Below are positions 11,239 through 37,719 of a stretch of 64,000 nt of DNA, piece after piece. The notes under the pieces were generated by a model. That model was not told the origin of the DNA, searched no databases, and saw nothing but the letters and a program-made list of their open reading frames with translations. Made by a program: the position numbers and the translations under genes. This DNA comes from Escherichia coli (lineage in GTDB: Bacteria > Pseudomonadota > Gammaproteobacteria > Enterobacterales > Enterobacteriaceae). The DNA lies in NCBI RefSeq assembly GCF_016903815.1, contig NZ_CP069973.1. One strand, given 5' to 3'. Position 1 is the first letter of the stretch, and every line of letters starts with the position of its first letter.

Positions 11239-11314
11239 GCCGATATAGCTCAGTTGGTAGAGCAGCGCATTCGTAATGCGAAGGTCGGAGGTTCGACTCC
11301 TCTTATCGGCACCA
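11239..11314 (+). tRNA. thrW: tRNA-Thr (CGU anticodon)
   Basis: 76-nt sequence GCCGATATAGCTCAGTTGGTAGAGCAGC…GGTTCGACTCCTCTTATCGGCACCA with cloverleaf features and encoded CCA; position after proA matches thrW. Confidence 0.9.
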
Positions 11315-11677: not shown

Positions 11678-12148
11678 TCATGCGGCCACCTCGCTGATAA
11701 ATTTTACGCCGTCGGCGGTACGCAGCCAGCGTGGGGCTTTGAGTCCTTCCGTGAAATACCAGACCAGCTCACACAGCAGCCCGGTCAGGGTTTGCTCCAT
11801 TTTTGGTTCCGCCGGACGTTCCAGCAGAAGCTGGAGTAGTGCGAGGCAGTATTCGCACAAGGAATCAGGTTCGGAAATAAAGTGCTCTGGTGTGGCGGGA
11901 AGGGTATCCACGGTCAGGCTTTCGGTAAGATGCGGTGGGATGGGGTCGTGTAGTGTGGGTTGCAGTAGCGCAAGAGCCGCGTGAAGCCGCCCGCAGAGCG
12001 CCAGTCGTAGCGCTGGATCGTCGGTTTCAATCAGGGTTTCGGCAAAGCGGGCGCAGTAGTCAGCAAGGACAGTGAAATCCGTGGTGGCATTGAAGGGGAC
12101 GGTCAATAGATCGAGTAAATCGCTGTCAGTGGTGAGGATTGTAGCCAT
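11678..12148 (-). CDS. Hypothetical acidic protein (156 aa), unknown function
   Basis: Clean ORF with an AGGAGG-like RBS (ggaggttgcc) just upstream of its ATG; leucine/acidic-rich; no family recognised by eye. Confidence 0.5.
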
Positions 12149-12494
12149 AGGGCAACCTCCGATAAGTGGGTGTTCAAGCCACCACCGGAGAGGCTAATCT
12201 CGCGGGTGGTGGAACCGGGCAGGGTTAGCCTTACCAGCCTTATCGGACACTGGCGCGTCTTGCGACGCCCCCGCCCGGCCCACCATTGAGATGTAACCGT
12301 GCGAACAACACAAAAAAAGACGCTGGCGCGTCATGTGTCGCCGATAAGATTTCTTCAGGAGGCTAATCCCGACGCCTGATTTTGCAGGCGCGGGAGAAAG
12401 ATACTGCGATTGGTCATGAGTGGCAAGGGCTACATCATGTTTACCAACATCTCACGCAAAAATACCCTGATTATTAATAGCGAAAATCAGTTTC

Positions 12495-15400
12495 TTATTT
12501 TGGCGGTAGCTTTTTGCGGTTCTTTGCCAACTGGAATCCTTCAGGTAACGGTTTGAATTTATCGCCGCCTTTAGGCCAGCGTTTTGCCCTGCTCTGAAAT
12601 GCCCTTAACGAGTCGATATCCAGCGTTGCAGCGACCACAAAGTCATTATCACCGCCCTTCACACGAGCAATATCACGCATAAAGGGTTCTTTTGCCGGGG
12701 AACGTACGCGACTATCGCCGTATTTTCGGTTATTCACTAAAATAGTATAGGCATGAATATCCAGCGCTGCTGATTCAATCAACGATGCAAACGTATCTAG
12801 ATCTTTATTCCAGCTCAATACCATTAATGCATCGAGTGCGCCCTGAAAACGGATCCTCGCTTTACTATTCTGGAGTTCAGAGCAAATCATAACGCCAAAA
12901 TTGACGCCGTGATGAATATATACCGGCTTACGTTGTTTAACATTAAGTGTCGAATCCCAAGACTTACCATAAATTGAAAATAATGCCTCATCTTCACCTA
13001 CGGCGGGTTCCAGCTTGGGTTGCCATATTTTGACACTCGCTGGATAGCCGAGTCTGTTATCTGAAAGGACAAGTACGGCCTCACTCTTCAGTTGATTATC
13101 GTCTAAGTGGCGGTATTCTGTTCCCGCAATTAGACTGATACCCGCCGAACTCAAACGATCAGCAATACTGTTAACCCAGCGTAACGGGATTGAAAGCTCA
13201 GGGAATAAAACATAATCAGGTTTAGGAGATAGTTTCAATGTTGCATTAACCAGTTCAGAAATCCGCTGGTACCTTGAACGGGACAAGTTAGATTTATTGC
13301 AGGCCATTTTAGCCCAGTCGTCCTCCTCTGTTTTAATGCTGGTTAGCGCAACGACAACTTTATGTTTCCTGTCTGTGCCAATATGAATGAATTTCTTAGG
13401 CCGAGCTTTTTTTGTCGCTTCATCTGAGTCCTGCTCCGATGCTAGCAACGTCGGTTTGATCCATACTCCGCGTAATGCTTGAGTATATTTTGCCCAAATG
13501 GTGGACGGTCTCTCATCTGGTTTTTTGTCGGATGTGGAGGGTAATCCAACACATTCGGGGGCCAGTTCTGATATTTCAGCGGGTGTTAAAGGACGTGTAG
13601 GGAAAATGTAAGGTAGGTAACTTTCGTTCTTACGATTTCCTTTAGCCACTTTTTCCAGTCGGGTATTCTTGGTTGATTTCAAAAATAGCTTAATAACGTC
13701 AATATCAATAAGCGATGAGTCGCTCATTAATTTCAGTATTTTAACTTCTTTTTTACTATCACGCTGATTAACAAGTTTTTCTGCCGACTGACTCTTTACG
13801 ATCTGTTTATAAGGTTCCTTTGCTAAATCAGCTCGAGCTACCAATGGCGCTTTTAAATAAAAATCTGCTGAATCAAAGCGAAGATCCAGTAAATCCTTTA
13901 GATTCGTCAGACTTTGTGAAATATGATTAAAAAATGTATCCGCAAGGCACTCTTCTTTCTTTGAACGTTTATCAAGAAATAATCTGTCAGGACTGTAATA
14001 TCGTGTCGCTGCATCAACAAATAGCCAGCTTAATGTGCCTTTTATACAGCGCCAAAGATCATTTACTGCTCGAGTTTTGCAACCATTTATATTCACTTCC
14101 TTACCTGAAGTAATCACCGATGCCAACAGGTTGATGGATTCGTAAGCTTTAAGTACAATTTTTTCCGCGTGCTGCCATTCATTCATACTGATAGCAAAGC
14201 CAAGCAGCCTTGGCAGATAACTAAAATGTGCAAATAGATTATCAGCCCTAAGAATATGGTTGTAGGCAAACTGATAAAACTCTTCCCGCTGTTCTTTCCA
14301 TTCACTTGGAGGCAGATCTCGTGCCAGTGTTTCAACGTAGCGTAATTGCAGTGACCAGCCCAAACGACGAATGGTTAATCCATCCGCACGGCGCAGAGTA
14401 TCGGCATTTTCACCTACACTACCGGCAGCGGAAAGGACTTTAGCTGCGGTGGAGTGTTCCAGTTGATCCGGTGAAGGCATCAAGCGGTGTTCACTAGAAA
14501 GCTCGTAGATCTCCTTTTCGATACTGTCGAGCAGGTCTATTCCAGCCCTCCCTTGAAGCACGAAAAGTTTTTGCTTATCGGATTGTAACTGGATGGTGGT
14601 CTTACCCTGGAAATGCTCGCCCTGCTGTATTTGCCATATTTGTTTTTGCTCGTTTTTCAAATAAACGCAATCATTGCCAAGCCTATCTTGCAGCAATAAC
14701 ATAAATTCGTGATTATTAGTAATTGTCCCTGTATCGCGTATTACAAGGAACATATCATCGACATAACGACCGTAGTGAATTGGTGATAGTTTTTCAATGA
14801 CTAATTTATCCCAATGGTGTAGCAATATATTTGAAATGATCCGACTGGCTGTTAATCCAATGACCAGACCACCATTAATAACAGGTGTTTTGTACGCTAT
14901 TTTCTTTCCAAATGCCGCTGCGCCGTCAGACCAGTGCTTTAAGAATACTGCTAACTGTGCAGTAAACGCTTTTTCATCCTCAGTCAGTTTTATGTTTAGT
15001 GTGTTATAGAGATCATCAGAGGTTATAGCCAGTGGATCAATAAAATGATAGTAACTTTTTAAATCCAGTGAGGCGGCGATAATGTCACGATCTTTTTCCA
15101 ACTCGTCACGTATAGCTTTTAAGCCATCACCACGCCATTTTTGGTAGGGCTGGAAGTAGGGGCTAAAAGAACCCACGGCACTGATATGGAATGGATTATC
15201 CTGCTCATTGCTAAATAATTCATCATTACGAATACGCTTTAGCCGCGCGCCATAGCAACAGTTATCTAAGCTGGCATCAAATTTATGCCCGACCATGTTA
15301 ATCCATAGTGCAGAGATAATGTGACTATCAACCGGGAAGTCACCAATAATACGAAACTCTGGTATCAGATCAAAATTATTAAATAAATGGTCGGCTGCTC

Positions 15401-15704
15401 GTTTAGGATTAGAAAAGTGGACGTGTCCATTTTGGGATTCATGTTTTTTCTTTGTGGTTAATTTTTTCGGTAACAAACGAAATTTGCCAATCAACTTCTT
15501 ATTGCTACTGAATCCATCTTCGCTCTGCAAAAGATCTAAGAGTTTTTGCAGGTTTTCAAGTAATTCCTGCTCATACTCGGCAAATTTGATAGCAACAGGA
15601 AATGTATTCTCAAAGAAGCTATCGGCTTTTGCTTTCCGGTAAGCGACCAGAAGGTCTTCAATCGTCAGATCATCCCAGCCAGTGAAAATTGCCTGATATG
15701 TCAT
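12495..15704 (-). CDS. Reverse transcriptase fused to a C-terminal nitrilase (carbon-nitrogen hydrolase) domain; candidate defence-associated RT (UG/DRT-like)
   Basis: 1069-aa ORF. RT motifs: ASLDLKSYYHFID (motif A), GLVIGLTASRIISNIL (motif B-like), YGRYVDDMFLV (YVDD at 14754-14765). C-terminal nitrilase-like triad candidates: FPELSIP (Glu codon 13197-13199), a Lys near VKIWQPK, GVMICSE (Cys codon 12881-12883). Confidence 0.8.
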   Translation of the reverse strand: MTYQAIFTGWDDLTIEDLLVAYRKAKADSFFENTFPVAIKFAEYEQELLENLQKLLDLLQSEDGFSSNKKLIGKFRLLPKKLTTKKKHESQNGHVHFSNPKRAADHLFNNFDLIPEFRIIGDFPVDSHIISALWINMVGHKFDASLDNCCYGARLKRIRNDELFSNEQDNPFHISAVGSFSPYFQPYQKWRGDGLKAIRDELEKDRDIIAASLDLKSYYHFIDPLAITSDDLYNTLNIKLTEDEKAFTAQLAVFLKHWSDGAAAFGKKIAYKTPVINGGLVIGLTASRIISNILLHHWDKLVIEKLSPIHYGRYVDDMFLVIRDTGTITNNHEFMLLLQDRLGNDCVYLKNEQKQIWQIQQGEHFQGKTTIQLQSDKQKLFVLQGRAGIDLLDSIEKEIYELSSEHRLMPSPDQLEHSTAAKVLSAAGSVGENADTLRRADGLTIRRLGWSLQLRYVETLARDLPPSEWKEQREEFYQFAYNHILRADNLFAHFSYLPRLLGFAISMNEWQHAEKIVLKAYESINLLASVITSGKEVNINGCKTRAVNDLWRCIKGTLSWLFVDAATRYYSPDRLFLDKRSKKEECLADTFFNHISQSLTNLKDLLDLRFDSADFYLKAPLVARADLAKEPYKQIVKSQSAEKLVNQRDSKKEVKILKLMSDSSLIDIDVIKLFLKSTKNTRLEKVAKGNRKNESYLPYIFPTRPLTPAEISELAPECVGLPSTSDKKPDERPSTIWAKYTQALRGVWIKPTLLASEQDSDEATKKARPKKFIHIGTDRKHKVVVALTSIKTEEDDWAKMACNKSNLSRSRYQRISELVNATLKLSPKPDYVLFPELSIPLRWVNSIADRLSSAGISLIAGTEYRHLDDNQLKSEAVLVLSDNRLGYPASVKIWQPKLEPAVGEDEALFSIYGKSWDSTLNVKQRKPVYIHHGVNFGVMICSELQNSKARIRFQGALDALMVLSWNKDLDTFASLIESAALDIHAYTILVNNRKYGDSRVRSPAKEPFMRDIARVKGGDNDFVVAATLDIDSLRAFQSRAKRWPKGGDKFKPLPEGFQLAKNRKKLPPK

Positions 15705-15998
15705 GCGTTATCGTCCTTAGATTACAGTCTGTACAGAATTAGCCAGCCGTTTCATGCCCGAAGGGGGGCTCTTGACACCAGTAATCCATCAGTGAGGCTG
15801 GCAATAATTTTGATTTGTATCCATGTTACACGCTCCCCGCAACCAGTCCGAGCATATATTTGTCACATTTTTCCCGAAAGTGATTAAGTTTGAATTTTTT
15901 GTTTAATGTCGATTTTTAGTCGACAAAATGAGGAATAAGTAAACTATTTCTTGCTGTGGCGTATCCCTGAATCTACACTGGTTTAAATATTTGTACTA

Positions 15999-16802
15999 AT
16001 GTCTATTCAGAGGCGACAGTTGCCAAACTATCTAAACTGGCTGATGCAGCACACGCTACCCGGCCAGGTGCTGCTCCAGTCATGGCTTACCCGCAACGGC
16101 ATAGATCGTAAGCTCTCTTATCTCTATGTGAAGAATGGCTGGCTCAGGCGGATCGCTCACGGCGTATACTGCCGGACGGGTCGTGAACCGGATTGGGTGG
16201 ATGCGGTTTACTGCCTGCAATCGCAGTGGGAAAAGCCTGTTCGGGTGGCGGGGCTAACCAGCCTTGCGCTTCAGGGTCATGCGCACTATACCGAACAGGG
16301 TAAGCCGCAGGTCTGGCTCGCGCTTCCGGCTTACGTCAAACTGCCGGGATGGTTTTCTGCCTTTGAACAATCCGCAACATTTGTCACGCTGTATACGTCA
16401 GGCCTTACCGCTGATGTAACGCCATTTACTACGGAACTGAAAATTGGTGACCGGCAGTTAGCGGGCAGTGTCCCGGAACTGGTCGCGTATGAGATCGCTT
16501 GTGGCGTTCCTTCGTTGATCTCGTTCGAACATGCCGATGCTCTGTTTCAGGGGATGAATCTTCTCAGCCCGCGTAAATTGCAGGCGTTACTCTGCGCCAG
16601 TCATTCGGTTAAAACCAACCGGGTGATGCTTTACCTTGCCCGGCGTAATGGACACCCTTATTTTCAGTTTATTGATCAAAGCGGTATAGAAACAGGTACG
16701 GGAAAGCGGCAAATCATACCCGGCGGCTGGCTGGAGCCGGATTATCAAATTACTGTTCCACGCGCATTTAAACCGGAAGGAGTCGAAGATGGATCTGCGT
16801 GA
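15999..16802 (+). CDS. AbiEi-like antitoxin/transcriptional regulator (type IV TA / abortive infection)
   Basis: 267-aa ORF; N-terminal segment (…LYVKNGWLRRIAHGVYCR…) matches the AbiEi wHTH signature; overlaps the next gene by 14 bp. Confidence 0.65.
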   Translation: MSIQRRQLPNYLNWLMQHTLPGQVLLQSWLTRNGIDRKLSYLYVKNGWLRRIAHGVYCRTGREPDWVDAVYCLQSQWEKPVRVAGLTSLALQGHAHYTEQGKPQVWLALPAYVKLPGWFSAFEQSATFVTLYTSGLTADVTPFTTELKIGDRQLAGSVPELVAYEIACGVPSLISFEHADALFQGMNLLSPRKLQALLCASHSVKTNRVMLYLARRNGHPYFQFIDQSGIETGTGKRQIIPGGWLEPDYQITVPRAFKPEGVEDGSA

Positions 16803-17709
16803 TAGCTATGCCCGGCAGGTCAAACTGTTGATGGCCGCTCTGCCGTATGTGGCGAAGGAGTCCTGTTTCGCGTTGAAAGGCGGCACCGCAATCAATTTGT
16901 TTGTGCAGGATTTTCCCCGTCTGTCGGTGGATATTGATCTGGCGTATAAGAGCTTTGCGGATCGCGATACTGATCTGGCGGCTATCAACGACGCTTTGAA
17001 GAGGATTACTGCATCGCTGAACGGCAGACCGGGGATCACCGCGATTCGGCAGGAAAATAAAGCGGATGAAAAGCGCATCATTGTGAATACCGCTGATGCA
17101 AAGATTAAGATCGAGGTTAGCCCGGTCTGGCGCGGGCTGTTGTTGCCTCCGGCAGAAATGCCTGTGTGCGAACGTGTGGAAATGGAGTATGGCTTCACCA
17201 CCATGAGTGTCGTCTCGCTGGCGGATCTTTATGGCGGTAAAATCTGCGCAGCGCTTGATCGTCAGCACCCGCGCGATCTGTTTGATGTGCTGAATATGCT
17301 GGAGAAACCGGGACTGATGCGGGAGATCTTTGACGGTTTTCTTTGTTATCTGGCAGGCCATCCCCGCCCCATTGCCGAGTTGCTGGCCCCAAACTGGGAT
17401 ACAGAGCGGATCACGACGCTGTATGCTCAGGAATTTTCGGGGATGACTCAGCAGGAAACGTCGCTGGAATCGCTGCTGTCAGTAACGACTTTGCTGCCGC
17501 AGGCGTTGAAGTCACATCTTACGGATCTGGATCGCGAGTTCTTGCTCAGTTTTAAGCAAAACAGCCCTGACTGGTCGCGGTATCGCTATCCTGAAATTCA
17601 GCATCTTCCGGCTATTCGCTGGAAGCAACGTAATCTGGCGGTGCTGAAAGATAAAAATCCGGCGAAGTATGTGGCGGCGGTGAATAAGCTAGAGAGGGTG
17701 CTGGCGTAA
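16789..17709 (+). CDS. AbiEii-like nucleotidyltransferase toxin (DUF1814-type)
   Basis: 306-aa ORF with nucleotidyltransferase motif FALKGGTAINLF…RLSVDIDLAY; translationally coupled to the upstream AbiEi-like gene. Confidence 0.7.
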   Translation: MDLRDSYARQVKLLMAALPYVAKESCFALKGGTAINLFVQDFPRLSVDIDLAYKSFADRDTDLAAINDALKRITASLNGRPGITAIRQENKADEKRIIVNTADAKIKIEVSPVWRGLLLPPAEMPVCERVEMEYGFTTMSVVSLADLYGGKICAALDRQHPRDLFDVLNMLEKPGLMREIFDGFLCYLAGHPRPIAELLAPNWDTERITTLYAQEFSGMTQQETSLESLLSVTTLLPQALKSHLTDLDREFLLSFKQNSPDWSRYRYPEIQHLPAIRWKQRNLAVLKDKNPAKYVAAVNKLERVLA

Positions 17710-17821: not shown

Positions 17822-17933
17822 ATATTTTAAATAGCAGTGAAGTGAACAGTTTATTGCCGTTATTAATAGAGATGGAGGAATAAATACGCGTATTCTACTA
17901 TTGCAACAAAAACAACGATAATGATCAGTTTTC
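17822..17933. repeat. Dispersed ~110-bp repeat, copy A
   Basis: About 88% identical by eye to 37104-37214; shared core …tgaagtgaacagtttattgccgttattaataga…cgtattcta…aaaacaacgata…tcagttt. Confidence 0.75.
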
Positions 17934-18142
17934 ATAATGAAGTAACCTGATAGATATAAAAATGTTGATTGAGGCTAAATGCCCGGATGAAGGTTGTCGA
18001 GGGAGCCAGGTGGTTTTTTCTTTTGGGTGATCTCCATTGCTGGATAGTCCCCTCTTTCTCGCTCAAAGCAGACCCTGGAATTGAACGCAGAGGGACTACC
18101 TGACACAATTTTGCACAGTGAAGAGTCGGTCGTTATTAACGT

Positions 18143-34761: not shown

Positions 34762-35373
<612 letters not shown>

Positions 35374-35756
35374 TTACAGGTACATTCAGTTTCTTTAGTA
35401 AATCGGAAGTAAATAAGATACGTAGCACATATCAATATAGGTTAAACGAGATTAAGTTTTAATTATTTCGATTAGGTTTAAATTTATGTTTTTTTCCTGA
35501 TGAGTGTCAATATGTGAACAGAAAAGGAATTCCATGGTTAAGTCAATATTTACAAAAAATGAAAATATTGCTTTTTTGATAAGAAGAAAAAGACATTCAG
35601 TTTCATAAGGTTATTGGCAATATAACGTTCAATTCTTACTTGCATTTTATATTAGCCAGGAACTTTGCCCTGAGGTGTTAGGAATAGTCTTAATGTGTTG
35701 TGTAATGGACTAGTAAAAAAACAAGTTTAAATGATAAGAAATAGAATATAAAACTA

Positions 35757-35981
35757 TCATGAGTTATAATTAAAGATGATTTTCCAATCAGTAAGGTGTT
35801 TTAATGGATTAACATGCCGCACAAAATGGTTATGGGTGTTCATCCCAATAAGTGATGAAAAATTAAACAGGTGTAAGTACGTCATCTGTCCGGTAAGCCC
35901 CCTAAGAGCCAAATTAAGTGAAGTTAAACGAAGACTGCCAGTTGTCACAGGAACGATGGCCTCTTTGCCAGGGCACTGCAT
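35757..35981 (-). CDS. ykgL: Small hypothetical protein (possible YkgL)
   Basis: 74-aa ORF in the AT-rich region between ecpR and ykgO; called only from position and length. Confidence 0.3.
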   Translation of the reverse strand: MQCPGKEAIVPVTTGSLRLTSLNLALRGLTGQMTYLHLFNFSSLIGMNTHNHFVRHVNPLKHLTDWKIIFNYNS

Positions 35982-36387
35982 TCAGTCATCTGTGCGCGTT
36001 ACTCTAACTGGCACTCGAACGTCGGCGATGGGGTTACCGGTGGATCAGGCCGTTCCTGTGGCGTAAACGTTTTTATGTCAGTACCAACAGATTTACCACA
36101 TTTATCATCTTAACCGTTTGAGTGTAAATGCAGGCTGCGTCGCAAAGGGAGGAAACTGAGTGGCGTGTTCAGTCTAAAAGAGAGTTGATGCCAGCATACA
36201 GGGCGCACCTGGTCAACAAGTCAACATTAATATAATGGAATATTCGGAGAGAAACGTCAGGCAGTTGACCTTAAATGAACAGGAAGATACATCCCCAGGA
36301 AAATTAATGCTGGTGTAATAAATACACCAACATTAATCCGGTCTGATTATTAATCAGACAAATATCGTTAATTCGTCGAATTTTGAA

Positions 36388-37103: not shown

Positions 37104-37214
37104 ATATTTTTTAATATCACTGAAGTGAACAGTTTATTGCCGTTATTAATAGAAATGGAGAAATAAATAGGCGTATTCTACAATTGCGACAAAAACAACG
37201 ATATTAATCAGTTT
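37104..37214. repeat. Dispersed ~110-bp repeat, copy B
   Basis: About 88% identical by eye to 17822-17933. Confidence 0.75.
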
Positions 37215-37719
37215 ATGACTGATTTGTTGTACTTTATTCTCTTTCATTGGTACTTCCTCGCTTTAAAAAAGAGTGCACTTCGTAAGTGCCCTTATATAAA
37301 TAACGAGTTTGGTCAACCAATTTTTTGACATGTATCACAAATTTGAATAGATGTATTACATCGGCTATCTTTTATTGCCCCAACGTCATTGATATATGTC
37401 GCCTGAAGTCAGTCCGGGAATGAGTCTGATCTCAAAACTGGCCCAGCCCGGGCGTTGATTGGCGCTGAGGAGCATATCGCATCTCATCATAATGTCGTAT
37501 CTCCTGGGGTGTTATACAAGATATCGTTGTTGGTGACCTGGGAGAGGAATTGAGTTCTATTAAACCGTCAACTATGCCGGATACATACTGGATTACACAG
37601 CAGGCACGCCTTACGAGAGAACGTGCCGCAGTGACGAGTTAATTATCTGAAAGAATTTGCGAGGCTGTATCGGTTACTCATTGGTTTAATAGTTTTACTC
37701 TCGGGAGAGTAATAGATAT

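Follow-up and report, generated by a model that had tools for sequence, protein, structure and literature searches.

An AbiE-type gene pair and its variable neighbour in the thrW island of Escherichia coli

Two overlapping genes lie back to back with an RT-nitrilase gene in a 64,000-nucleotide stretch of E. coli DNA (hereafter the window), which raises the question of whether they encode a genuine AbiE toxin–antitoxin system and, if so, whether that system stands alone or acts together with its divergent neighbour. We consider it highly probable that positions 15796–17709 form a self-contained abiE toxin–antitoxin cassette of the AbiEi_3 subtype and that the RT-nitrilase is independent of it. 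The pair itself is already known, from the RefSeq annotation, which names both abiEi and abiEii, and from the hotspot #33 entry (AbiEii) of a published E. coli survey; it is an ordinary, correctly recognised member of the AbiE family and brings little new biology. What is added here is a corrected start for abiEi, a bounded cargo slot beside the pair, and an operator model for AbiEi_3-type antitoxins.

Layout, family membership and predicted folds of the pair

The pair occupies two open reading frames on the plus strand, 15999–16802 (267 aa) and 16789–17709 (306 aa), and both frames, their coordinates and their 14-bp overlap (16789–16802) are exactly those of the original prediction. The overlap is set by the ATG of abiEii at 16789 and the TGA of abiEi at 16800–16802, and an AAGGAG Shine-Dalgarno sequence for abiEii lies just upstream, at 16777–16782. 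The junction, GAAGGAGTCGAAGATGGATC.GCGTGA, is kept in E. coli variants, Salmonella, Photorhabdus and Brenneria, with a single substitution in Brenneria alone, and we infer that translation of the two genes is probably coupled. The start of abiEi is most likely TTG 16020, not ATG 15999. The ATG is not conserved at the orthologous loci of Salmonella, Photorhabdus and Brenneria; the TTG is conserved there together with its Shine-Dalgarno sequence (AGAGG/AGGAG), and the equivalent start is the one used in homologues and by RefSeq, giving a putative antitoxin and probable autorepressor of 260 aa (16020–16802). The RT-nitrilase gene lies on the minus strand at 12495–15704, leaving a gap of 294 bp (15705–15998) to the first open reading frame; with abiEi starting at TTG 16020, the RT-to-abiEi intergenic distance is therefore approximately 315 bp.

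Both products belong to described families. AbiEi matches Pfam AbiEi_3_N (5.7e-29) and AbiEi_3 (2.1e-33) as well as PADLOC (E-value 2.2e-77), while the product of abiEii, a predicted DUF1814 nucleotidyltransferase toxin, matches Pfam PF08843 over residues 14–221 (i-E 3.9e-35) and PADLOC over its full length (4.3e-116); searches of NCBIfam and PHROGs returned no match for either protein. The assignments agree with the expectation of an AbiEi-type N-terminal winged helix, borne out by AbiEi_3_N and by the predicted fold described below, and of an AbiEii/DUF1814 motif, since the quoted strings are present (LKGGTAINLF at residues 29–38 and RLSVDIDLAY at residues 44–53 of the 306-aa protein) and the Pfam AbiEii match is significant. 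The suggested AbiEi_4 domain (PF13338) has to be replaced: its match spans 17 residues (43–59; i-E 0.0046, 17.5 bits), and the protein belongs to AbiEi_3/AbiEi_3_N.

DUF1814 toxins are defined by the motifs hG[G/S]x15DhD with an upstream Arg, K-x6-R and +DxxD, mutation of which abolishes the toxicity of S. agalactiae AbiEii (PMC3985639). The residues of the E. coli protein fit these motifs and make up a complete DUF1814 pol-beta nucleotidyltransferase set, comprising motif I (G31-G32, with x15 to D48-I49-D50), motif II with the phospho-acceptor (R44/S46/D48/D50), E109, motif III (K151...R158) and motif IV (R162-D163-L-F-D166). Among 30 homologues G31, G32, R44, S46, D48, D50, K151, R158, R162, D163 and D166 are invariant, and S46 is equivalent to the phospho-acceptors T65 of S. 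agalactiae AbiEii, S78 of MenT3 and S46 of Serratia AbiE-T2.

Searches of PDB chain sequences with both proteins, by phmmer or with a 30-sequence profile, gave nothing relevant, so folds were compared instead. The best Foldseek matches of the AbiEi AF2 model (pLDDT 90) are Rv2827c/MenA4 (1zel, 4.8e-9) and S. agalactiae AbiEi (6y8q, 6.5e-7), the TM normalised to the query being 0.45–0.50 in the comparison with the latter, and the protein is predicted to adopt the two-domain AbiEi/Rv2827c fold, with an N-terminal winged helix and a C-terminal antitoxicity domain. The AbiEii model (pLDDT 91) matches MenT4 (6y56, 3.4e-8) and MenT3/TglT (4e-6 to 9e-6) in the PDB, with a probability of 1.0 and TM of 0.51–0.59 for MenT4 and MenT3, which points to a MenT4/MenT3-like pol-beta NTase fold. 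As there is no match at the sequence level in the PDB, the transfer of mechanism from MenT and S. agalactiae AbiE to this pair rests on fold and motifs, at approximately 15% identity.

Three characterised systems are close enough to be informative. The AbiE-2 system of Serratia sp. ATCC 39006 (AbiE-A2/AbiE-T2) is a validated toxin–antitoxin pair that perturbs tRNA abundance, and its toxin kills E. coli 10^6-fold, with rescue by the cognate antitoxin only (PMC7725324). It resembles the present pair in its Pfam AbiEi_3 antitoxin, its DUF1814 toxin with S46 at the same number and its bicistronic enterobacterial operon (PMC7725324); the comparison is with its published description, and the homologues that we found in the genus Serratia are approximately 54–55% identical. 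MenA4/MenT4 of M. tuberculosis (Rv2827c/Rv2826c) provide the best structural matches for both proteins within one operon (1zel for the antitoxin, 6y56 for the toxin), with MenT3 (Rv1045) of the same species as a further fold match for AbiEii, but differ in sharing only approximately 15–16% identity with no HMMER match and in having unrelated repeat sequences. S. agalactiae AbiEi/AbiEii, whose antitoxin is a wHTH autorepressor with a C-terminal antitoxicity domain, likewise form an overlapping operon with the antitoxin first, with motifs I–IV and with the phospho-acceptor position occupied by Ser/Thr (Dy 2014; Arrowsmith 2026 preprint). Their overlap is 4 nt, in contrast to 14 nt in E. coli; the antitoxin is smaller (chains of 184–195 residues in 6y8q, compared to 260 aa) and, unlike the E. 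coli protein, is not placed in AbiEi_3 by PMC7725324.

The two genes are conserved as an overlapping unit, and purifying selection on them is strong. The dN/dS ratio of both genes is 0.07–0.16 within E. coli and between genera (0.07–0.12 for abiEii), both open reading frames are intact in all inspected variants and they are annotated as genes in 40 of 40 sampled records. In 78 of 80 other species an AbiEi_3-like gene is the immediate upstream neighbour and ends no more than 200 nt from the AbiEii start, abutting or overlapping it, and the family as a whole is large and named, with more than 8,000 close homologues. The Pfam and PADLOC matches and the Foldseek folds agree with the AbiEi/AbiEii identity and the defence-island setting of the original prediction, and together the family assignments and modelled structures strongly support a genuine AbiE toxin–antitoxin (abortive-infection) pair.

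The thrW island and the slot beside the pair

The island at the tRNA-Thr gene thrW of E. coli that carries the abiE cassette at its distal end is integrase-borne and decayed, its integrase and an HTH gene being pseudogenes. Its position, proA–thrW–yagP, corresponds to the chromosomal site of defence-island hotspot #33 (proA / tRNA-Thr-CGT / yagP) of Hochhauser et al. 2023, who list AbiEii for hotspots #5, #33 and #37 and characterise #33 as a site of integrase-only defence islands. In ST131, GI-thrW carries the methyltransferase M.EcoMIII; cargo-slot junctions, the boundaries of the AbiE cassette and the architecture of the upstream repeats are not described in the portions of the hotspot #33 and ST131 GI-thrW papers that were available. 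A search near the right edge of the island found no attR copy of the thrW 3' end, so that the right boundary could be placed solely by comparison among strains. The island backbone also contains C4/IsrK RNAs.

Next to the pair, and separate from it, is a variable cargo slot (12429–15795, minus strand), both junctions of which were placed by alignment with other islands (left ~12429, right ~15796). Here the slot holds a single UG5-large RT-nitrilase gene (12495–15704; PADLOC RT_UG5-nitrilase, E=0), and in other strains it holds a type I R-M system (hsdRMS), as in ST131-type strains, or dptFGH, each cargo bringing just ~85–91 bp of its own upstream DNA. When RT-, R-M- and Dpt-type islands are aligned, the sequence leftward of 15796 is cargo-specific and homology among the island types begins at GGCTGGCA, ~224 bp upstream of TTG 16020. 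The segment 15705–15795 thus goes with the RT gene, and the block 15796–16019 (plus strand) travels with abiEi–abiEii in all E. coli island variants as a putative upstream control region. By this alignment the RT–abiE intergenic region is composite, its two parts meeting at a swap junction near 15796. Of the 294-bp divergent control region proposed at the outset as common to both modules, the size of the gap stands but the sharing is not supported, since the junction splits the region.

The alternative that this bears on is a composite system in which the RT-nitrilase and AbiE would be regulated together from a bidirectional promoter, with AbiE as an effector or regulator of the RT. The two modules are adjacent and divergent, 294–315 bp apart, the RT's own 91 bp yielded no consensus promoter, and every RT-bearing E. 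coli genome has AbiE, ~258 of 260 holding the whole 7.2-kb block. However, of 5,426 E. coli genomes 832 carry the abiE pair but just 260 the RT, so that at least 572 have AbiE without the RT; hsdRMS or dptFGH replaces the RT in the slot; the homology junction divides the intergenic region; and when 80 loci with related pairs in other species were inspected, not one had an RT homologue within 10 kb. The two modules are thus not consistently found together. We regard a composite system as very unlikely, its distribution having already largely refuted it, and the early caveat that coupling between the modules was unproven was apt, as the same distribution contradicts the functional coupling that had been hinted at. 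On the genomic evidence the RT-nitrilase is cargo in its own right, a single gene and one of several neighbours that alternate beside abiE, and the abiE pair is best regarded as a cassette that stands alone rather than as the partner of this gene.

Repeats and a candidate promoter upstream of abiEi

The block upstream of abiEi contains two units on the plus strand that form a direct repeat, 71% identical, and are candidate AbiEi operators. The distal unit (15888–15925; 38 nt, GTTTGAAT...TAATGTCGATTTTTAGTCGACA) holds the palindrome TGTC-N11-GACA at 15907–15925. In the proximal unit (15981–16018; GTTTAAAT...TAATGTCTATTCAGAGGCGACA) the palindrome, at 16000–16018, overlaps the AGAGG Shine-Dalgarno sequence of abiEi (16009–16013), and a full GGTTTA hexamer at 15979–15984 starts two bases to the left of the unit. 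TGTC-N11-GACA has two matches in the 64-kb window, both upstream of abiEi, where 0.6 are expected, for a pattern that was defined only after inspection of the sequence. The repeat units, spanning −132 to −2 relative to abiEi, are comparable in layout to the promoter repeats of Rv2827c, which autoregulates through two tandem repeat sets from −1 to −131; the S. agalactiae AbiE operator, TGTTGCTTTTA-N27-TAAAAGCAACA, differs from the E. coli repeats.

As a family-wide operator TGTC-N11-GACA was rejected, being found at just 2 of 76 distant loci, and the palindromes therefore look locus-specific, with the GGTTTA box as the common element. Among 6-mers upstream of abiEi GGTTTA shows the strongest enrichment, occurring at 27 of 76 loci from other species compared to 1.7 expected, with positions that peak around −40 and −112; the enrichment spans phyla, and GGTTTA/TAAACC boxes taken together are enriched ~16-fold over the 76 loci. 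The pattern AAAC[CT]-N3-36-[GA]GTTT is present in 42 of 77 upstream regions compared to 1.6% of background windows. A test for 13-mer direct repeats across the loci gave a modest enrichment (mean of 10.19 matches versus 9.58), with at least 12 matches in 9 of 77 upstream regions and in 3 of 380 controls.

A candidate abiE promoter lies between the two units (15951–15979, plus strand), with a putative −35 element TTGCTG (15951–15956), a spacer of 17 nt and a putative −10 element TACACT (15974–15979) that aligns with TATAAT in Salmonella and Photorhabdus and TATATT in Brenneria. A strict sigma-70 scan reported no plus-strand promoter upstream of abiEi and did not flag this site, and a terminator scan found none convincing after abiEii. 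To our knowledge the DNA targets of AbiEi_3-type antitoxins have so far not been mapped, and the GGTTTA box with the palindrome units offers a concrete, testable operator model for them.

Proposed mechanism and possible roles

By analogy with S. agalactiae AbiE, M. tuberculosis MenAT and Serratia AbiE-2, we propose that AbiEi would repress its own promoter through the duplicated units at 15888–15925 and 15981–16018, and would bind AbiEii and hold it inactive, probably through induced auto-phosphorylation at Ser46. Free AbiEii would add nucleotides to the 3' acceptor ends of tRNA, blocking translation and growth; the nucleotide and tRNA specificity varies among the characterised AbiE/MenT relatives. 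Loss of antitoxin control, on phage infection or on loss of the island, would then free the toxin and may lead to abortive infection, to retention of the island, or to both.

It is possible, though on balance somewhat doubtful, that the pair serves chiefly for addiction or stabilisation, holding the thrW island and its defence cargo in the chromosome, with no direct activity against phage. The pair is constant where the adjoining slot varies, and it is retained even though the integrase gene is now a pseudogene; relatives at 54–58% identity are located within gene clusters of conjugative elements (T4SS) and of type IV pili/shufflons, remote from defence genes; and AbiE stabilises an ICE in S. 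suis, according to the available part of that report (PMC11062541). S. agalactiae AbiE in E. coli gave no protection against 32 coliphages, and a defence phenotype is therefore not guaranteed for the E. coli pair. On the other hand lactococcal AbiE and some DUF1814 systems do confer phage resistance, and an AbiE pair of E. coli CFT073 distinct from this one (c3681-c3682) altered phage susceptibility. A literature search found no report of phage resistance conferred by the present pair, the record for its relatives being mixed, and the stabilising and anti-phage roles are compatible, neither excluding the other. That the pair is instead decaying and non-functional, left over from a dead mobile element, as the two pseudogenes and the missing attR repeat might suggest, is extremely improbable: we rejected this reading on the intact open reading frames, the low dN/dS and the invariant catalytic residues, and the upstream control block is conserved as well.

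A wider reading, to which we attach a low probability, extends the autonomous cassette into a fixed anchor of integrase-only islands with one cargo slot, the backbone order being int, HTH, a 156-aa protein, the C4/IsrK RNAs, the slot and abiE. The two putative AbiEi operator units in the 224-bp block might then also control the divergent cargo gene, RT-nitrilase or hsdR; if the antitoxin were lost or titrated in the course of infection, the adjacent defence gene would then be released from repression and the island retained as well. The slot at ~12429–15795, sharply bounded and filled differently from strain to strain, is a convenient natural swap site for the study of defence-cargo turnover.

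Gene architecture and protein families

The antitoxin gene abiEi and the toxin gene abiEii lie on the plus strand as two ORFs of the ORF list (15999–16802, 267 aa in its longest form, and 16789–17709, 306 aa), which overlap by 14 bp between the toxin ATG at 16789 and the antitoxin TGA at 16800–16802, with an AAGGAG ribosome-binding site six bases 5' of that ATG. Both ORFs, their overlap and the toxin motif LKGGTAINLF...RLSVDIDLAY are found as described in the original prediction, which is therefore confirmed save for the antitoxin start, placed there at ATG 15999. This ATG is missing from the orthologous Salmonella, Photorhabdus and Brenneria loci, in which TTG 16020 and an AGAGG/AGGAG Shine-Dalgarno are invariant; antitoxin homologues start at the equivalent of TTG 16020, and the RefSeq gene also starts there, giving a protein of 260 aa.

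The expected DUF1814/AbiEii domain was recovered in the 306-aa protein by both Pfam (AbiEii/PF08843, 3.9e-35) and PADLOC (AbiEii, 4.3e-116). The antitoxin matches AbiEi in PADLOC (2.2e-77) and AbiEi_3_N (5.7e-29) and AbiEi_3 (2.1e-33) in Pfam; the AbiEi_4 domain first proposed for it gives only a marginal Pfam match of 17 residues, and the subtype is AbiEi_3. No solved structure matched either protein at the sequence level, profile search included. The AlphaFold models are confident (pLDDT 91 for the toxin, 90 for the antitoxin), with best PDB matches to MenT4 (6y56, E 3.4e-8) and MenT3/TglT for the toxin, and to Rv2827c/MenA4 (1zel, 4.8e-9) and Streptococcus agalactiae AbiEi (6y8q, 6.5e-7) for the antitoxin; each protein is therefore closest to one half of a single Mycobacterium tuberculosis operon. 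Residues invariant in a 30-sequence AbiEii alignment include G31, G32, R44, S46, D48, D50, E109, K151, R158, R162, D163 and D166, and conform to the family motifs hG[G/S]-x15-DhD (with Arg four before the first Asp), K-x6-R and +DxxD, mutation of which abolished toxicity in S. agalactiae (PMC3985639). S46 occupies the phospho-acceptor position (T65 in S. agalactiae AbiEii, S78 in MenT3, S46 in Serratia AbiE-T2). Profiles, motifs and predicted folds thus bear out the AbiEi/AbiEii identification in substance, and the pair is ordinary: its family is named, partly characterised and very large, with > 8,000 homologues at E < 1e-5.

The thrW island and its cargo slot

The window comes from the E. 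coli chromosome and matches strain 7/2 at 100% identity, with the annotated order proB, proA, tRNA-Thr (thrW, 11239–11314), integrase pseudogene, HTH pseudogene, 156-aa hypothetical protein gene (11678–12148, minus strand), 'ash family' ORF, RNA-directed DNA polymerase, AbiEi-family antitoxin, AbiEii/AbiGii toxin, ykgR fragment and LysR regulator; both genes of the pair are thus already named in RefSeq. The E. coli defence-island survey (Hochhauser et al. 2023) places AbiEii at hotspots #5, #33 and #37, and its supplementary table defines #33 as yagP (LysR) / proA / tRNA_Thr_CGT, the same locus as the island described here, known in ST131 as GI-thrW. With genes and hotspot on record, our additions are modest: the anatomy of the cargo slot, RNA matches in the island backbone, and, for AbiEi_3 antitoxins, a candidate operator (the GGTTTA box) shared across phyla.

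The 156-aa protein has no match in PADLOC, NCBIfam or PHROGs, nor in Pfam (precomputed for a homologue). It is kept beside the islands that carry abiE, at 64% identity in Salmonella and 69% in Brenneria and as a fragment in Photorhabdus, and its gene belongs to the backbone of this island family. Between it and the cargo slot, the conserved backbone contains minus-strand Rfam matches (12202–12404) to C4 antisense RNA (RF01695, 12202–12290, 71 bits, gathering 45), isrK (RF01394, 12313–12391, 68.8 bits, gathering 50) and c4-a1b1 (12352–12404, 43.8 bits, slightly below gathering), which suggest that the island's ancestor was an element with RNA immunity of the P1/P4 type. The matches overlap the short 'ash family protein' ORF (12194–12367), which may be secondary to the RNAs.

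The slot is occupied by a full-length RT-nitrilase gene of UG5-large type (12495–15704, minus strand, 1,069 aa in the ORF list; PADLOC RT_UG5-nitrilase, E=0), alone and with no partner gene, flanked by 65 bp of its own sequence downstream and 91 bp upstream. According to a preprint, canonical UG5-large loci carry a transmembrane partner, but the partner-less member DRT11 is still active, defending Sinorhizobium meliloti with the RT and fused nitrilase domain alone. In the same scaffold the RT is replaced by hsdRMS in strains ZH193 and ETEC4070, and by dptFGH and HTH genes in strain 33F4. Homology to these variants stops at ~12428 and resumes at ~15796, 224 bp upstream of TTG 16020, and the intergenic region is therefore a mosaic, 15705–15795 belonging to the RT cassette and 15796–16019 to abiE, rather than the single shared divergent control region originally envisaged. 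Where another integrase pseudogene comes next, homology stops 2–3 nt past the abiEii stop.

Functional coupling of the two modules, raised as a possibility on the basis of their adjacency, is contradicted by their distribution: the pair occurs in 832 of 5,426 complete E. coli genomes versus 260 for the RT, slot cargo is swapped, and no RT-nitrilase homologue lies within 10 kb of the pair at any of 80 loci sampled across many phyla (one genome per species). In 78 of these 80 an AbiEi_3-like gene ends < 200 nt from the AbiEii start. A Salmonella island runs integrase, HTH_35 gene, 157-aa gene (sharing 64% identity with the 156-aa one here), Lamassu-like genes (CTD7, MC3, LmuB_C), two unknown genes and abiE; neighbours differ again in Photorhabdus and Brenneria, and relatives at 54–58% identity lie within conjugative-element (T4SS) genes or beside a type IV pilus/shufflon cluster. 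The abiE genes are an obligate two-gene unit, and RT adjacency is confined to one E. coli island variant.

Directly right of abiEii is a truncated ykgR fragment (~17863–17931), the complete gene lying ~19 kb on (~37146–37247, RefSeq); this partial duplicate may be the trace of an old rearrangement at the right edge of the island. No terminator-like site was found immediately 3' of abiEii; a terminator-like hairpin and T-run (GAGGGAGCCAGGTGGTTTTTTCTTTTGG) lies at 17999–18030 (plus strand), ~290 bp past the stop and beyond the fragment. Elsewhere, the lowest-GC kilobase of the window (35001–36000, GC 0.35) lies within the long ecpR-ykgL intergenic region in the strain 7/2 annotation, and ykgL (~36128–36353) and ykgE (~54990–55708) are frameshifted pseudogenes in RefSeq for that identical strain.

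The upstream control region

The conserved block upstream of abiEi contains a 38-nt direct repeat (15888–15925 and 15981–16018, 71% identical), each copy closed by a TGTC-N11-GACA palindrome, the proximal one overlapping the abiEi Shine-Dalgarno. This pattern, picked after inspection of the sequence, has two matches in the 64-kb window, both here, against 0.6 expected. In place of TACACT (15974–15979, plus strand), Salmonella and Photorhabdus have TATAAT in the alignment and Brenneria has TATATT, so this hexamer is likely the -10 of the abiE promoter; TTGCTG lies 17 nt upstream.

In an unbiased 6-mer enrichment test on the upstream regions of 76 loci from the 80-species set, GGTTTA came first (27 of 76 loci against an expected 1.7), followed by its complement TAAACC (22 of 76 against 1.4); GGTTTA positions peaked at ~-40 and ~-112. 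A composite AAAC[CT]-N3-36-[GA]GTTT occurs in 42 of 77 upstream regions versus 1.6% of control windows. Many loci have their own palindromes, one upstream and one across the start codon; the statistics give modest support to a duplicated repeat. In E. coli the GGTTTA box (15979–15984, plus strand) directly follows the putative -10. The overall arrangement is like that of the Rv2827c promoter, in which the antitoxin binds two tandem repeat sets between -1 and -131, and is consistent with the ~200 bp of upstream DNA needed for cloning the Serratia abiE operons (PMC7725324). We infer from these sequence patterns that AbiEi binds the repeat units as candidate operators.

Predicted activity, selection and allelic variation

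The DUF1814 toxins MenT3 and S. agalactiae AbiEii extend the 3' ends of tRNAs with extra nucleotides, which halts translation, and Serratia AbiE-T2 affects the tRNA pool (PMC7725324). In characterised relatives the antitoxin, on binding the toxin, causes it to auto-phosphorylate, and on these grounds AbiE has been proposed for reclassification as type VII; the antitoxin also represses the operon. By analogy, E. coli AbiEii would extend tRNA 3' ends and halt translation, and AbiEi would bind AbiEii, trigger its auto-phosphorylation and repress abiE. For the E. coli pair itself, the analysis shows the gene architecture, the motifs, the predicted folds, purifying selection and candidate operators. 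Its role may be defence, island retention or both: S. agalactiae AbiE gave E. coli no protection against 32 phages, and in CFT073 another E. coli AbiE pair had an effect on susceptibility to phage.

Both genes are intact in all variants examined, with dN/dS (Nei-Gojobori) of 0.08–0.16 among E. coli alleles and 0.07–0.11 against Salmonella, Photorhabdus and Brenneria. The overlap junction is kept across these three genera, with a single substitution, in Brenneria only. In ETEC4070 (locus L004, 9022–10711, compared with 16020–17709 of the window) abiEi has a dS of 0.23 to the window allele, the same as the ST131-type allele, while abiEii is nearly identical (dS 0.02) and the right flank also matches, a pattern which implies a recombination breakpoint within the abiE operon.
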